Shown here: piece by piece, positions 44 through 8,565 of the stretch | Numbering within the stretch: the first letter of the stretch is position 1 | Layout: every line of letters starts with the position of its first letter | IMG/VR virus record: IMGVR_UViG_2681813271_000005 | Reading direction: 5' to 3' (one strand) | DNA from: a virus | Taxonomy: Duplodnaviria; Heunggongvirae; Uroviricota; Caudoviricetes | DNA length: 8,718 nt | Notes under the pieces: generated by a model | The model's database searches: none | The model's input: the letters and a program-made list of their open reading frames with translations, nothing else | What the model was told of the DNA's origin: nothing | Program-made: the position numbers and the translations under genes

Positions 44-601
44 ATGGCATCCTTTTCAAATCAAATAAAAGTAACGAACTTTCAAATTAAAAGTACTGAA
101 CCGATCTATTCTAATCAAACATGGACAGGTCAACGTATCATGAGAAGTACTGGAATTCAATACTATCAAATTCAGTTCACCCTTAATTTTAATCCTGCAT
201 CACTAAATGAAGTGAATAGCTTTTTAGCTCAATATGCACAGGGCAAACCTTTCACTATGTCATTGGGGCTTGCAGGTACATATTACGGTAAACAGACTGG
301 TGCAGTAACCGCTACTGCTCTCACTAAACCGGGTAATATGGTTGTACCTATCAGTACTAACACATTAGCTGTGGGTGAGTGGGTACAGTTTTCCAATCAC
401 AATAAGCTATATCGAATCGTAGAACGTACCAGTACTTCAATTACTATTTTCCCTGCTCTACAAAATACAGTACAGGCAAGTGAAGCACTCAAATATAACA
501 ATCTCATGATCGAGGCTGTATTAGATCCAGACAATGATTATTCATTGCCTATTGGGAACATCATGAATATTACATTGAAAGCAACGGAGAATATCATCTA
601 A
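44..601 (+). CDS. Minor tail protein, lambda gpM-like N-terminal region with a C-terminal extension of roughly 75 aa
   Basis: ATG at 44 preceded by GAGGT (33-37) at 6-nt spacing. Residues about 40-74 (YYQIQFTLNFNPASLNEVNSFLAQYAQGKPFTMSL) resemble, from memory, the lambda gpM core (TYSVTLSVPREEATVLESFLEEHGGWKSFLW). The stop overlaps the next start (TAATG at 599-603). It is the first gene of an M-L-K-I/J-like series. Confidence 0.6.
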   Translation: MASFSNQIKVTNFQIKSTEPIYSNQTWTGQRIMRSTGIQYYQIQFTLNFNPASLNEVNSFLAQYAQGKPFTMSLGLAGTYYGKQTGAVTATALTKPGNMVVPISTNTLAVGEWVQFSNHNKLYRIVERTSTSITIFPALQNTVQASEALKYNNLMIEAVLDPDNDYSLPIGNIMNITLKATENII

Positions 602-1223
602 TGGACTCAGGTATATATACTAATGCTAATCTTCTTAAGTACTGGAAGTTAGTCAGAGGTACAACCAAGACAAGATTAACACTAATGGAAATTATGAGCT
701 TAGGCGTTAATGTTACTTGTTTTGATGTACTACCAAAAGGTACTAATGGTTTTCACTGGACGGATTCACTAATTGATATAGATCTGGATGGTTATAAGTA
801 CATAAGTTTCCCCGACATTATCAGTGGTTCATTACCTTCATATTCTGAACAAAAGGGCATGTCTAATGATGCTATCAATTTTAAAATTAGCAATGTAAAC
901 GCCTCGGTTCGTGCTCTTGCCCTTGGTGGTTTCTTGAAAGATGCACAGATGAATATCAAGTTAGTAATTCTCAATCCATATGATAGTACTGTAATTGATT
1001 CAATGCTCATGTTTACGGGGTTTATTGACTATGTACAGGCAGTAACTGATCCAAATCAGAAGCAAAACGAAATGACTATATATGTGAATTCTGTCTATAA
1101 GAAATTAGACAGACAACCTGCATTAATTGCCGCCAACTCAGTATATCAATCTTACTATAGAAATGATGAGTACTTTAGTCTGTTAGGTCAAGTTAATCAA
1201 AATCAGAACTGGAAATACAAGTA

Positions 1224-1224
<1 letters not shown>
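601..1224 (+). CDS. Minor tail protein, gpL-like by position and size only
   Basis: 207-aa ORF coupled to its neighbours by TAATG overlaps at both ends. Its position between the gpM-like and gpK/I/J-like genes matches lambda L. I could not find the lambda L C-terminal Cys cluster, so the assignment is positional. Confidence 0.45.
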
Positions 1225-4923
<3,699 letters not shown>

Positions 4924-5080
4924 TAAATAATTCAGGGATTATTAACTGTAACCTCATTTCAAAAGGATACATAAATGAAATCTAATGAACGTACTTTCAA
5001 TAGTACCAGTACTAACCCATTCAGTATTAGCGGAAAAGAAACAATTGGAATGAAGAAAAGGATTTACAGGAGTAAGAGCT

Positions 5081-5377
5081 ATGGCACAGGGATTACAATG
5101 TTGGAATGCAGCGGGTGTATTAGTAGTAGATCTGACTGATTATAACATACGTTTTATGGGTACTTATACTGTCAAGGCTACTTCTGCACAGACCTATACT
5201 GTATCAGTACCAAATATGAAAACTACAGGCTGGTTTGTACACTATGCCCCCGCCAGTGATACCTTTAATGAGTGGTCAGCCTTTTGTAATAATGGGTCAT
5301 TTACTGCGGTTTATTTGCCAACATATGCACCGTTAGCTGGTAACTACACTTTTAACGTATATAAGTGGACGGCGTAA
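5081..5377 (+). CDS. Hypothetical protein; paralog of the next gene at its N-terminus; possible tail-tip accessory protein
   Basis: 98-aa ORF with AGGAG (5068-5072) 8 nt before the ATG. The N-terminus MAQGLQCWNAAGVLVVDLTD aligns with MA-GFEVYNSAGALTIDSTN of the next ORF. It lies immediately downstream of the J-like gene. Confidence 0.55.
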   Translation: MAQGLQCWNAAGVLVVDLTDYNIRFMGTYTVKATSAQTYTVSVPNMKTTGWFVHYAPASDTFNEWSAFCNNGSFTAVYLPTYAPLAGNYTFNVYKWTA

Positions 5378-5378
5378 G

Positions 5379-6035
5379 ATGGCAGGTTTCGAGGTATATA
5401 ATTCAGCGGGTGCACTGACTATAGATAGTACTAACAAGTCGATAATGACGGGTGCAGTAAAGGCCATGGGAAATCTAACTGATACGGGATACTACACAGG
5501 CTTTACCTGTGCCTTCGGTAATGGTGGATCGCTCGGTTTCGTTATGCCATCAGTAGTAGCTAACAGGAACACAACACAGTACTGGTTCCAGATACAGAAA
5601 GACGGGGCATGGTGTTTCCCTGGTGCCTATATGTTCCAGCCTGGCATGGGCAGGTTCATGACAAGTAGTCACACGGCTACCCCCACATCTGGTTTTCTTG
5701 ATGTGTTCAGTGAAGAAGGTACTTTAATCTGGTCTGCTGCATCAGCGGCAACAATGCCACGTATCAGGGGATTTTTGACAGCACCTGCGGCTACCGATCT
5801 CAGTACTGCCATTACGGTAACGTCTCCAGTAGCTGATCCCTGGTTCTGCTGGTCACAATGTCCGGGGAACATATCAGATGATGGTACAGTAATTGGGTAC
5901 TCTGGTCTGGTTATCAGGCGTAATTCCAGTACTTCATTCAGTCTACAGTACGTTTCAAAGAACCAGAAAACCTACCGCCAGGCAATGGGGAATAATGGTA
6001 TCCAGATAGCATTGGCGACATTTACAGGGTATTAA
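5379..6035 (+). CDS. Hypothetical protein; paralog of the previous gene at its N-terminus; Cys-containing; possible receptor-binding or tail accessory protein
   Basis: 218-aa ORF starting 1 nt after the stop of the previous gene. It shares the N-terminal motif G[LF]xx[WY]N[AS]AG[AV]L[TV][VI]D[LS]T[DN] with that gene. Contains four Cys, including FCWSQCPG. Confidence 0.55.
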   Translation: MAGFEVYNSAGALTIDSTNKSIMTGAVKAMGNLTDTGYYTGFTCAFGNGGSLGFVMPSVVANRNTTQYWFQIQKDGAWCFPGAYMFQPGMGRFMTSSHTATPTSGFLDVFSEEGTLIWSAASAATMPRIRGFLTAPAATDLSTAITVTSPVADPWFCWSQCPGNISDDGTVIGYSGLVIRRNSSTSFSLQYVSKNQKTYRQAMGNNGIQIALATFTGY

Positions 6036-6036
6036 T

Positions 6037-6078
6037 ACAATAACAATAACAATAACAATAACAATAACAATAACAACA
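6037..6078. repeat. Hexanucleotide tandem repeat (ACAATA)x6 plus one imperfect unit (ACAACA)
   Basis: Read directly from the sequence: six perfect ACAATA units at 6037-6072 and ACAACA at 6073-6078. It sits between the stop of the 5379-6035 gene and the AAGGGA ribosome-binding site of the 6092 gene. Confidence 0.9.
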
Positions 6079-6091
6079 AAGGGATTTCAGT

Positions 6092-6364
6092 ATGGATATC
6101 GGTGCTATTTTAGCTCTTGTTATTTCTGGATGCGTATTCCTTTATACTATCTTTAGAGATAATACAAAGGATACGAATGATCTATTAACTCGCGTTGCTA
6201 CTCTTGAAACTACCATTGCTGTACTGGAAAGTAGTATTTCCCGTATTGAGGATGATCAGGATAAGATGAGAGATACACTAAGTAAACTGGAAACACAAAT
6301 CCATGAACTTGATGTTAAGATTGAAAGGATTATTGCAATTCTTCAGCAGAAACAACGACCATAA
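6092..6364 (+). CDS. Small membrane-anchored coiled-coil protein (one N-terminal TM helix); candidate lysis regulator, spanin-like or superinfection-exclusion protein
   Basis: 90-aa ORF with AAGGGA (6079-6084) 7 nt upstream. The N-terminus IGAILALVISGCVFLYTIF is a hydrophobic helix of about 20 aa. The rest is charged with heptad-like periodicity (LETTIAVLESSISRIEDDQDKMRDTLSKLETQIHELDVKIERIIAILQ). It ends at the bidirectional terminator and is convergent with the lysozyme gene. Confidence 0.55.
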   Translation: MDIGAILALVISGCVFLYTIFRDNTKDTNDLLTRVATLETTIAVLESSISRIEDDQDKMRDTLSKLETQIHELDVKIERIIAILQQKQRP

Positions 6365-6365
6365 A

Positions 6366-6402
6366 AAAAGGCATAGTATGTCATTCGTACTATGCCTTTT
6401 CT
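6366..6402. terminator. Bidirectional rho-independent terminator
   Basis: Perfect 9-bp stem GGCATAGTA (6370-6378) / TACTATGCC (6388-6396) with a 9-nt loop. An A-run (6363-6369) lies upstream and a T-rich tract (6397-6415) downstream, so it works on both strands. It sits between convergent genes, with the - strand stop codon at 6403-6405. Confidence 0.8.
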
Positions 6403-6852
6403 TTATTTGTTTTTAAGTACTGCAATCATGGAATTCACACGGTTTGGTGTCTGCCTGTACCATAGAGAACACTTAGCCTGTTTAATTGCTTCAAGGTAAT
6501 CATGTGCTTTCAGGGCTGCTAACATCTTACGGAATTTCTTCACCCCGCCAATACCTAACTGGAAGGTCATGATAATAATAAAATCATTCCAGTCATCGGG
6601 AAGATTTAACCCTAATGTCTGTACCTGCATAATTGTTTTGGCTAAATCGCGAGATAGTAACTTGTCTGCTTCGCTTTCAGTAATGCCAGTACTAAAATCT
6701 TCTCCCGCCTGAATTAAGTGACCATATCCAATAGTACTACATCCTAAACTATCAGCATATGGATAGAATTTCCCATTTCTGAAGTACTTCAAATTTGCCT
6801 GATACTCTTTAGTACCTTCATATTCTTTTAATCGTGTTTTTAAATCGCTCAT
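6403..6852 (-). CDS. Endolysin, T4 lysozyme-like (glycoside hydrolase family 24 muramidase)
   Basis: 149-aa ORF. The catalytic signature E12-G ... YAD34SLGCST40IGYGHL matches the T4 lysozyme Glu/Asp/Thr triad and the TIGxGH motif. The C-terminal SLWYRQTPNRVNSMI closely matches T4 lysozyme SRWYNQTPNRAKRVI, and MTFQLGIGGV matches MVFQMGETGV. No N-terminal hydrophobic (SAR) segment. Confidence 0.9.
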   Translation of the reverse strand: MSDLKTRLKEYEGTKEYQANLKYFRNGKFYPYADSLGCSTIGYGHLIQAGEDFSTGITESEADKLLSRDLAKTIMQVQTLGLNLPDDWNDFIIIMTFQLGIGGVKKFRKMLAALKAHDYLEAIKQAKCSLWYRQTPNRVNSMIAVLKNK

Positions 6853-6862
6853 TTACTAAATA

Positions 6863-6881
6863 CCTATAATGAATTTATAGG
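6863..6881. promoter_or_regulatory. Perfect palindrome CCTATAA-N5-TTATAGG in the 36-bp divergent intergenic region; contains a TATAAT -10-like hexamer (6865-6870); candidate operator or divergent promoter core
   Basis: Read directly: CCTATAA (6863-6869) and TTATAGG (6875-6881) are reverse complements. TATAAT sits 18 nt upstream of the ATG at 6889, with AGGA (6879-6882) as ribosome-binding site. On the - strand, TATAAA (complement of 6872-6877) lies upstream of the lysozyme start. Confidence 0.35.
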
Positions 6882-6888
6882 AATATTT

Positions 6889-7323
6889 ATGATGAGTGAA
6901 TGGAAATACTCGGATGATTGGAGCGAGGAGGAAATGTTATCCGGTGAATATGCTGGTTTCGTTTATATCTTTCAGTTTGAGGATGGTTCTAATTATGTCG
7001 GTGCTAAGCAAATCTATCAGCGGGTTAAGGATGCGAGAAAGCTAAAGCCCACTTCAAAGGAAAATGGCTGGCGTGAGTACCTCAGTAGTTCCAATGTCGT
7101 TAAAAACAAAATTGAAAATGGTGAACAGTACTCAAAAACGATTCTATGGTGCTTCGCAACTATGCGAGAGGTAATGATTGTAGAGGCAATACTGATCCTT
7201 CATCAGATGCTTAAACCGGAATGTTTGAATCTGGCAATGATGAGTAAGATTAGATCACCAAATGCAAAGGATAAAAAAAGACTACTCGGAATAGTACAGG
7301 AACTATTGGAGTACTTGAATTGA
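6889..7323 (+). CDS. GIY-YIG family nuclease, short free-standing catalytic domain (homing-endonuclease-like)
   Basis: 144-aa ORF. AGFVYIFQFEDGSNYVGAKQIYQRVKDAR matches the GIY-(10-11 aa)-YVG motif plus the conserved Arg, as in I-TevI SGIYQIKNTLNNKVYVGSAKDFEKRWKRH. A downstream MREVMIVEAI is consistent with the conserved catalytic Glu helix. There is no long C-terminal DNA-binding domain. Confidence 0.7.
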   Translation: MMSEWKYSDDWSEEEMLSGEYAGFVYIFQFEDGSNYVGAKQIYQRVKDARKLKPTSKENGWREYLSSSNVVKNKIENGEQYSKTILWCFATMREVMIVEAILILHQMLKPECLNLAMMSKIRSPNAKDKKRLLGIVQELLEYLN

Positions 7324-7332
7324 GGTAAATAT

Positions 7333-7911
7333 ATGGCAAGTGGAATAAATGGGATTGGTAGTATAAGGAACTATATACAAACGCAGGGAGTTAGATTAAA
7401 TAATCAATTCCAGAATGAAATAATTAAACGTTCCAAGCTACTATCCCAAAGAATGCAGGGTGATTTGAATAATAGCGTTGACCGTGGGGCAGTGGGCTTT
7501 ACTCAACGTTCCATCCTTTTCTTCTATAGAAAGGTTGGGAGAAATTCAGTTACATCGACCATCATGGTTAAAGATATTCAGGCTAAGTACCTTTATCAAG
7601 TACTGGTACAGCCAAAGGCAATTGATAAGTTTATACCTACTTCATCTACAAGATTAACTAAGCAGGGCAACATTTCAGGACTGAAAAAGAATCTTTTAAG
7701 TGAACGATATAAGGTAGTGAAGGGTAAGAATGGTAAAGAACGATTAATTGATACCGCAAAGAAAGATACCAAGAAGAAAACCAAACGTGTAATTGGCTTA
7801 CGTGAGAAGAAACAACGTCGCCTTATCTATGACTTCTATAAGGAAGCCAATGATGGTGTAAGGGTAATTATGAGCGGTATTCAGGGAACATTCAGGATAA
7901 GTAGACAATGA
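7333..7911 (+). CDS. Hypothetical protein with a strongly basic Lys/Arg-rich C-terminal region; possible nucleic-acid-binding protein
   Basis: 192-aa ORF with GAGGT (7322-7326) 6 nt before the ATG. Lys/Arg-rich tract KGKNGKERLIDTAKKDTKKKTKRVIGLREKKQRR. The stop overlaps the next start (ATGA at 7908). Confidence 0.5.
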   Translation: MASGINGIGSIRNYIQTQGVRLNNQFQNEIIKRSKLLSQRMQGDLNNSVDRGAVGFTQRSILFFYRKVGRNSVTSTIMVKDIQAKYLYQVLVQPKAIDKFIPTSSTRLTKQGNISGLKKNLLSERYKVVKGKNGKERLIDTAKKDTKKKTKRVIGLREKKQRRLIYDFYKEANDGVRVIMSGIQGTFRISRQ

Positions 7912-8219
7912 ATTTTGAGCAACATTATGGTGATTTAATAAGCAAGATTAAGCTAAATGGCATGACACCAGATGGTAATAGTATGCCAATTAACAAATGT
8001 TTTCTTGATAAGAAATTTCAAAAGGTCGTTAAGAAAAGTAATTATCAGATTGATAGCTATATGAACGTTATTTATGAGAAGAAGAAAGATTTCAAAGTTG
8101 GTGAAGTACTTGAATGGGAATTACAGGGTGAAAAGATGCCTGTATTTCTAATTGAGAGTAAAAAGCTCTTTGTGAAGGGTAAACATTTTTGGGTATATGC
8201 CGTGGGGATTATTGAATGA
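7908..8219 (+). CDS. Hypothetical protein
   Basis: 103-aa ORF coupled by ATGA overlaps to the upstream gene (7908) and the downstream gene (8216). No recognisable motif. Confidence 0.45.
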   Translation: MNFEQHYGDLISKIKLNGMTPDGNSMPINKCFLDKKFQKVVKKSNYQIDSYMNVIYEKKKDFKVGEVLEWELQGEKMPVFLIESKKLFVKGKHFWVYAVGIIE

Positions 8220-8249
8220 TTAGTATATTGATTGAGTTTCTGAAGTCAG
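8216..8249 (+). CDS. 5' end of a hypothetical gene, truncated by the assembly gap
   Basis: ATG at 8216 overlaps the previous stop (ATGA). Only 11 codons (MISILIEFLKS) are readable before the N-run; the rest of the tracked ORF is X. Confidence 0.25.
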
Positions 8250-8565
8250 NNNNNNNNNNNNNNNNNNNNNNNNNNNNNNNNNNNNNNNNNNNNNNNNNNN
8301 NNNNNNNNNNNNNNNNNNNNNNNNNNNNNNNNNNNNNNNNNNNNNNNNNNNNNNNNNNNNNNNNNNNNNNNNNNNNNNNNNNNNNNNNNNNNNNNNNNNN
8401 NNNNNNNNNNNNNNNNNNNNNNNNNNNNNNNNNNNNNNNNNNNNNNNNNNNNNNNNNNNNNNNNNNNNNNNNNNNNNNNNNNNNNNNNNNNNNNNNNNNN
8501 NNNNNNNNNNNNNNNNNNNNNNNNNNNNNNNNNNNNNNNNNNNNNNNNNNNNNNNNNNNNNNNNN
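8250..8565. other. Assembly gap (run of N)
   Basis: 316 consecutive N characters read directly from the sequence. Its true length and content are unknown. Confidence 0.99.

Follow-up and report, generated by a model that had tools for sequence, protein, structure and literature searches.

A short GIY-YIG nuclease gene directly beside a phage lysozyme gene raises the question of whether it is a mobile element that recently landed there or a resident component of the phage that carries it. This question is posed by an 8,718-nucleotide (nt) stretch of DNA, hereafter called the window, from a virus of the class Caudoviricetes (IMG/VR record IMGVR_UViG_2681813271_000005). In an initial annotation, made from the sequence alone, the gene was proposed to be either a mobile homing-endonuclease insertion or a host-DNA nuclease. 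Comparison with related prophage loci instead indicates that the gene is a fixed, vertically inherited part of a prophage lysis-gene cassette and not a recent mobile insertion. The gene in question is the following:

6889 to 7323 (stop codon within), plus strand: nuclease gene, an ATG-initiated open reading frame (ORF) encoding a nuclease-only SegE-type GIY-YIG protein of 144 amino acids (aa).

The position of this gene was compared across 62 loci, consisting of 57 IMG/VR contigs and loci retrieved otherwise, of which 59 are untruncated. These loci span Shigella, Escherichia coli, Enterobacter, Serratia, Citrobacter, Kosakonia, Kluyvera, Rahnella-like bacteria and others, covering 10 or more genera and a wide range of integration sites. 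The neighbouring genes against which the position was judged are listed below:

6403 to 6852, minus strand: endolysin (phage lysozyme), the upstream neighbour, PF00959.
7333 to 7911, plus strand: g192, the downstream neighbour, 192 aa, with a predicted fold like that of an HK97 gp10-family neck/tail protein.
7908 to 8219, plus strand: g103, a conserved, faster-evolving gene of the same operon with no assigned function.
8216 to 8509, plus strand: g97, a holin with three transmembrane segments (3-TM), matching PF11351 (GTA_holin_3TM) with 25.0 bits against a cutoff of 24.8, and PHROG 3427 (holin).

The lysozyme gene is located directly upstream of the nuclease slot in all 62 loci, and g192 directly downstream in all 59 untruncated ones, often with overlapping stop and start codons; in relatives, g192 is usually translationally coupled to the nuclease gene through an ATGA overlap. 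An empty site between lysozyme and g192 was found in none of the 62 loci. Homologs with 85, 69, 66 and 58% identity sit in prophages at different host sites, and their loci have one gene order in common: J-like, 98, DUF8377, g90, lysozyme on the minus strand, nuclease, g192, g103 and g97. In addition, all loci fetched through g192 alone, which come from Pluralibacter, Phytobacter, Kluyvera, Serratia, the E. cloacae complex, Citrobacter and Kosakonia, carry a gene of the family PF19835, encoding 141-148 aa, directly upstream of g192, down to 43% identity. In Serratia, the lysozyme gene is flipped to the strand of the nuclease gene, and the position of the latter is unchanged. In the only gene-less case, the IMG/VR relative L084 (4962-5090), an internal deletion has removed nuclease codons ~18-111 together with a 1-nt frameshift, and the catalytic core is gone. 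As this copy still has its start and its 3' end and lies between two intact neighbours, it represents decay and not an empty site.

The sequences of the gene and its flanks lead to the same result. The identity of the nuclease among relatives tracks that of its neighbours, with a Pearson correlation of 0.81 with lysozyme and of 0.63 with g192. The proportion of nonsynonymous differences in the nuclease gene (pN 0.08-0.41) is low compared with that of synonymous differences, which is saturated (pS 0.62-0.84), and dN/dS is about 0.07-0.12 where computable, similar to the neighbouring genes and indicating purifying selection. The GC content of 0.393 is ordinary for the window (0.388). The proposed mobile insertion therefore fails, because the gene is uniformly present with conserved flanks, the pattern named in the initial annotation as counting against mobility, and co-divergence, ordinary composition and purifying selection speak against it as well.

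The identity of the product as a nuclease domain was supported by multiple lines of evidence. The ORF has an AGGA Shine-Dalgarno sequence ~9 nt upstream of its start codon. The Pfam family PF19835 (SegE_GIY-YIG) matches residues 5-104 of the protein with 60.7 bits (cutoff 25, E 2e-16), and all 24 close homologs likewise carry a precomputed PF19835 assignment. PHROG 7363, labelled 'homing endonuclease', matches with an E-value of 9e-14. PADLOC returned only a weak, generic 'HEase' match of 21 bits, and NCBIfam contains no model for the nuclease or the neighbouring genes. The AlphaFold model of the protein has a mean predicted local distance difference test (pLDDT) score of 90.9 and displays the alpha/beta GIY-YIG fold, with I-TevI, PD-T4-3/CMoRE, UvrC and T4 endonuclease II (EndoII, DenA) as the nearest folds. 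The protein belongs to PF19835 and to the GIY-YIG superfamily, and the gene encodes a true GIY-YIG nuclease domain and not a chance motif match, in agreement with the initial annotation. The best PHROG match is PHROG 447, labelled 'NAD synthetase'. This label was set aside since it is at odds with the fold, the motifs and the match to Pfam; it is probably a propagated mis-annotation. The family profile searched against PDB sequences gave PUF-domain matches only, which were judged to be spurious.

The conservation of individual residues was followed in a close set, consisting of the 24 homologs with 57-97% identity, and in a wide set of 134 diverse PF19835 representatives (101 short and 33 long) from an exhaustive profile search. 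Four groups of catalytic or signature residues are present:

6955 to 7002, plus strand: the 'GIY' (G23-F24-V25-Y26) and 'YIG' (Y36-V37-G38) motifs on beta-strands 1 and 2.
7021 to 7029, plus strand: R45-V46-K47, with R45 placed on the catalytic R27 of I-TevI and on an Arg of T4 EndoII, and K47 invariant in the prophage clade.
7069 to 7092, plus strand: the subfamily signature W61-x-x-Y64-x-S66-S67-S68 between strand 2 and helix 2, with W61, Y64 and S67 conserved in ~100% of the 134 representatives.
7183 to 7230, plus strand: the predicted metal-binding Glu E99 (codon 7183-7185, in helix 92-106) and Asn N114 (codon 7228-7230), both invariant and with the spacing of I-TevI.

In the close set, G23-F24-V25-Y26, Y36, G38, Q41, K47, W61, Y64, S66-S68, E99, N114, K120 and R122 are invariant. 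In the wide set, Y26, Y36, G38, K40, W61, Y64, S67, E99 and N114 are essentially invariant in short and long forms alike, and the GIY/YIG residues are conserved in 131 of the 134 representatives, the remaining three being alignment gaps. In a MAFFT alignment, Y6, Y17, G19, K22, R27 and K29 of I-TevI fall on Y26, Y36, G38, K40, R45 and K47, respectively; the I-TevI sequence used is that of PDB 1MK0/1LN0 except for the engineered active-site substitution of each entry. The distance of 15 residues between E99 and N114 is equal to that between E75 and N90 of I-TevI. The catalytic Arg and Glu, whose alignment had been suggested as a check at the outset, can be placed in this way by motif and spacing, with R45 on R27 and E99 on E75. 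This anchoring rests on motif alignment, spacing and fold, and for the Arg on sequence alignment; hhalign also sets R45 on an Arg of T4 EndoII, at an overall probability of 1%.

The Arg position, which in the GIY-YIG superfamily lies ~10 residues beyond the YIG Tyr, is nevertheless variable. In about one third of the family members it is occupied by K, G, H, P, S or N, and the invariant basic residues are K40 and K47. T4 SegE, which is an active enzyme, does not have the R45 segment at all. Its counterpart of the WxxYxSSS signature reads 'DGYLGSG', and besides Y-x-[SG]-S within this signature, T4 SegE has just the Glu and the Asn in common with the window protein. A canonical Arg therefore does not seem to be diagnostic of the PF19835 subfamily.

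Beyond the catalytic core, the protein contains little else. The following two terminal elements can be recognized:

6889 to 6948, plus strand: acidic N-terminal stub of residues 1-20, which has a net charge of -6 and a pLDDT of 79-92; W5 and W11 do not vary within the prophage clade.
7246 to 7317, plus strand: C-terminal basic patch (K120, R122 and K129 invariant) and amphipathic helix of residues 126-143, from conservation and the AlphaFold model.

The acidic N-terminal extension and the lack of a long DNA-binding tail had both been noticed earlier, and both hold: only 30 residues follow N114, forming the short basic patch and the single helix, and the last 28 residues have a net charge of +3. 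No second domain was detected in a Pfam scan of the 144-aa protein, and no NUMOD, helix-turn-helix (HTH) or zinc (Zn)-finger DNA-binding region. The basic patch and helix may form a minimal DNA contact or an oligomerization element. The top matches of the model in BFVD are SegE-like proteins of T4-like phages, with query-normalised template modelling (TM) scores of 0.80-0.81 over ~150 columns, and the C-terminal helix region is included in this superposition. The full 144 aa superposes in these models on the N-terminal catalytic module alone of Seg enzymes of 271-359 aa, in line with the earlier description as a minimal, Seg-related enzyme. As modelled, the gene encodes a complete SegE-type GIY-YIG catalytic module and nothing more.

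Longer alleles of the gene have also been found. Three longer close relatives were identified, namely P0109 (196 aa), P0112 (305 aa) and P0114 (300 aa). These long forms have an N-terminal module rich in Cys and His that weakly matches PF05265 (DUF723), a domain treated by Barth et al. 2023 (PMC10448857) as a predicted Zn-finger DNA-binding domain of homing endonuclease genes (HEGs) of the GIY-YIG/T5orf172 type. In the long forms, the counterpart of the acidic stub of the short form is the linker joining the Zn-finger-like module to the nuclease. Homology between the N-terminal modules of P0112 and P0114 is evident (33% identity, E 2e-23). P0112 and P0114 fill exactly the slot between lysozyme and g192, and their prophages differ in tail tips and integration sites. 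In a rough neighbour-joining tree, the long forms are nested among the short forms and are not basal. By this comparison, the window gene is the nuclease-only build of a gene that is elsewhere built as a DNA-binding module plus nuclease, and the presence of two builds in one slot offers a natural experiment on the gain and loss of DNA-binding modules on a GIY-YIG core.

Among known systems, the closest include the free-standing Seg-type GIY-YIG homing endonucleases of T4-like phages, such as T4 SegE and SegD, RB16p243, Bp7 gp184 and Aeromonas phage 65 ST65p046. These enzymes and the window protein have PF19835 in common, as well as the residues F-V-Y ... Y-x-G-x-K ... W-x-x-Y-x-S-S ... E ... 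N, and in the models all 144 aa can be superposed on the N-terminal module of these enzymes (TM score 0.80). However, the Seg enzymes are 205-359 aa long with C-terminal DNA-binding regions, whereas the window protein is the nuclease alone. In addition, Seg genes occur sporadically in gene gaps of lytic phages, while the window gene is carried by a temperate phage, is fixed and lacks presence/absence polymorphism. The catalytic domain of I-TevI (PDB 1LN0/1MK0) has only 16-22% identity to the window protein and is invisible to sequence profiles. In the model of the window protein, the helix-1 region of I-TevI is replaced by an extended segment with the WxxYxSS signature, and, unlike I-TevI, the protein has no linker, Zn finger or HTH.

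The expression context of the gene is given by its surroundings. Two further features are of importance here:

6853 to 6888, strand not assigned: divergent spacer of 36 base pairs (bp) that separates the start codons of lysozyme and nuclease and contains a conserved inverted repeat of consensus ATAAATACC ... GGTATTTAT.
6366 to 6400, strand not assigned: hairpin with a 15-bp stem and runs of A and T on its two sides, located where the g90 and lysozyme genes converge and likely to act as a bidirectional terminator.

As judged from gene order, the nuclease gene opens a conserved rightward operon, in which it is followed by g192, g103 and the 3-TM holin gene. This operon is divergent from the endolysin gene, and the nuclease gene would be co-transcribed with late and lysis genes. 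The coordinates of g97 were carried over from Shigella contig L001 (11328-11621), protein-identical over the flanking genes, as a run of 316 Ns (8250-8565) masks most of this gene in the window. The nuclease gene had been described as lying where the structural/lysis module borders on unknown genes; this is partly right, but the downstream holin places it inside the lysis/late cassette. The lysis genes of this cassette are split, with the endolysin on one strand and the holin four genes off on the other. Each arm of the inverted repeat in the spacer carries the ribosome-binding site of one of the two genes. The repeat was inspected in the window and in L007, L010, L012, L015 and L019-L021, and it is kept in 8/8 relatives, with spacers of 32-43 bp and a loop that varies in length and sequence; in Kluyvera, the changes in the arms are apparently compensatory. 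The repeat may serve as an operator or fold into a hairpin in the mRNA, and the spacer itself is too short for two promoters. The spacer motif AGGTATTTAT shows no enrichment in other parts of the window. The hairpin at 6366-6400 likely closes the tail operon as an intrinsic terminator acting in both directions.

On balance, the gene is probably a resident, vertically inherited and selected nuclease-only Seg-type gene, presumably active and located in an operon with late and lysis genes. Its product would be a Mg2+-dependent enzyme that nicks or cleaves DNA with a single active site, and it would be made together with the lysis and late proteins. Without a sequence reader of its own, the enzyme may have a low specificity, act with a partner, or self-associate through the basic patch and the C-terminal helix. 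A homing-endonuclease-type nuclease would thereby have become fixed and been retained for a phage function (domestication). The target may be host or competing-phage DNA cleaved during lytic growth, which is put forward tentatively; a structure-selective trimming of branched DNA before packaging is a less likely role, and a role in the lysogen, in defence or exclusion, is improbable, with the rest of the probability left to targets other than these three. A precedent for such retention is found in the GIY-YIG/T5orf172 nucleases of the ICP1-PLE system (Odn and others; PMC8263062, PMC10448857), in which HEG-type nucleases are retained for the benefit of the phage. Like the long allele of the window slot, these nucleases use DUF723/CapR-like Zn-finger DNA-binding modules. 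They differ in that they belong to the T5orf172 subfamily, have kept the DNA-binding domain and have an experimentally demonstrated function, whereas the function of the window protein is inferred.

Several points weigh against this explanation. The nuclease activity is a prediction, and the variability of the R45 position in about one third of the family means that the catalytic chemistry of the subfamily is only partly understood. Sequence profiles failed to link the family to any solved structure, both in a profile search of the PDB and in hhalign against I-TevI, which gave no significant alignment. A scan for sigma-70 promoters remained at chance level and does not fix the timing of expression. 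Nearly all loci were found via the nuclease or its immediate neighbour, and relatives without both would escape. Finally, the nuclease is dispensable for prophage carriage, because one lineage has lost the catalytic core and the Shigella prophages are decaying.

A more far-reaching reading, although it is doubtful, keeps the domestication and shifts the function. The gene would be a domesticated core late gene with two interchangeable builds, coupled to the HK97-gp10-like g192, and would act as a two-protein or virion-linked nuclease that is not selfish. Examples of the roles that would follow are DNA processing at packaging or an attack on resident or competing phage DNA. The model of g192 resembles the HK97-gp10 neck/tail protein, with weak Pfam support. 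The idea that g192 is the missing DNA-binding partner of the nuclease was considered and is not supported, as the g192 model looks like this neck/tail protein.

Less likely is a role similar to that of T4 EndoII, in which the host chromosome would be nicked or cleaved in lytic growth for host shut-off and nucleotide recycling. The functional analogy, already drawn in the initial annotation, still stands, but the family kinship does not, since EndoII belongs to PF01541 and not to PF19835 and its hhalign probability with the window protein is 1%. The EndoII gene is an early one and belongs to a lytic phage whose DNA is modified, whereas the window gene is lysis-linked in a temperate phage, and phage genes for host-DNA degradation are typically early and not lysis-linked. 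No sign of a protective self-modification of the phage DNA was found either; a DNA methyltransferase is confined to some members, where it is part of the variable cargo.

A nuclease for prophage defence or exclusion that is expressed in the lysogen, like PD-T4-3/CMoRE or other single-gene GIY-YIG systems, is unlikely. CMoRE is a GIY-YIG restriction enzyme dependent on 5-hydroxymethylcytosine (PDB 9u75; PMC12923530), and it is among the nearest folds of the model; however, its defining C-terminal modification-sensing domain and its GIYxY-YIG motif (PMC12923530) are both absent from the window protein. The motif of the latter reads F-V-Y-I-F, without the third Tyr of CMoRE, and PADLOC gave no PD-T4-3 match for it. 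In addition, the gene is embedded in and coupled to conserved late and lysis genes and is not part of the variable cargo.

Slightly less probable still is an inert HEG relic that is kept for DNA binding or regulation, for g192 assembly or as a translational-coupling leader. Such a relic would agree with the lack of family-wide conservation of the canonical Arg position, with the missing DNA-binding domain, with the tight coupling to g192 and with the core deletion tolerated by one lineage. The near-invariance of Y26, Y36, G38, E99 and N114 in short and long forms is hard to explain without catalysis, however, T4 SegE is active while missing the canonical Arg segment, and purifying selection extends over the whole protein.

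The weakest explanation, an active free-standing Seg-like HEG that recently inserted by the lysozyme gene and spreads through intron-less homing by cutting gene-less relatives, can draw on PF19835 membership, on nearest annotated relatives that are Seg-type HEGs in nrd gene gaps of T4-like phages, on Zn-finger-like long alleles in the same slot, whose module has been gained, lost or exchanged, and on the PADLOC 'HEase' match, but it is largely refuted by the lack of an empty site in any of the 62 loci across genera and integration sites, the co-divergence with the flanks under strong purifying selection without compositional anomaly, the absence of a DNA-binding module and the stop/start overlap with g192 in several relatives. 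By these comparisons, the window protein falls outside the EndoII and CMoRE families and does not behave as the product of a mobile HEG.

The preferred explanation of a resident, selected nuclease corrects a likely mis-annotation, as pipelines and databases call such genes 'homing endonuclease' where here a fixed, selected component of the lysis/late cassette is present. It also adds a temperate-phage case to the small set of HEG-type nucleases that are apparently retained for a function of the element hosting them. Among the best 150 of 389 PF19835 representatives, 101 proteins are at most 175 aa long, and short proteins of ~115-170 aa make up about two thirds of these 150 and thus most of the diversity detectable in the family, yet hardly any work has addressed their biology. 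In the literature library that was searched, no paper mentions PF19835 or SegE-like proteins, and the paper on the Ssn single-stranded DNA nuclease mentions neither DUF723 nor SegE. Some short PF19835 proteins are already labelled 'SegE-like GIY-YIG domain-containing protein' in BFVD/UniProt. The short proteins themselves are thus already known, and what is modestly new is that one of them occupies a constant position in a prophage lysis cassette, in a slot with two allelic builds.

The prophage lineage that carries the gene was also traced. The left part of the window encodes a tail-tip module (44-4923) with a distal tail protein, the hub-like g207, the DUF6950 protein g134 and a J-like tip protein of 1100 aa (fn3 and Phage_Tail_Tip). 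Apart from the N run, positions 5001-8240 are identical to the IMG/VR UViG 2690316276_000015. When the region was searched with megablast, neither GenBank phages nor complete E. coli genomes matched. The closest cultured match to the tail-tip protein has ~30% identity. These results point to a lineage of uncultured, siphovirus-like enterobacterial prophages, a lineage without an isolated representative, because the tail-tip module is only distantly related to cultured phages (~30% at best).

In the assembly collection, 686 blocks include contigs that encode exactly this nuclease protein, among them the Shigella sonnei chromosomes HE616528.1 and CP026802.1. In the Shigella prophage, the nuclease gene lies ~3.7 kb from the right end, with the host genes mipA-yeaE-yeaD-gapA-msrB adjacent. 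In the two S. sonnei chromosomes, the gene for the 1100-aa tail-tip protein is broken by insertion sequence (IS) elements (HTH_Tnp_1 and rve; L002:2151-8041, L004:3475-8029), and in several Shigella strains g192 is frameshifted to 166 aa (L004:10445-10945). Because of these IS insertions and the frameshift, the Shigella copies are probably defective prophages. Despite this decay, hundreds of assemblies carry an intact nuclease gene of identical sequence.

Between the cassette and host mipA, the right end of the Shigella prophage (L001:11682-13717) consists of variable cargo. This cargo encodes a 264-aa protein, the N-terminus of which matches the HNH-type CBASS effector and PDC-M68A models (PADLOC E 4e-23), and a 241-aa DNA methyltransferase (PHROG 3820, E 3e-103). 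At the same position, other members of the family carry a KAP NTPase, a DUF3800 protein or a serine recombinase.
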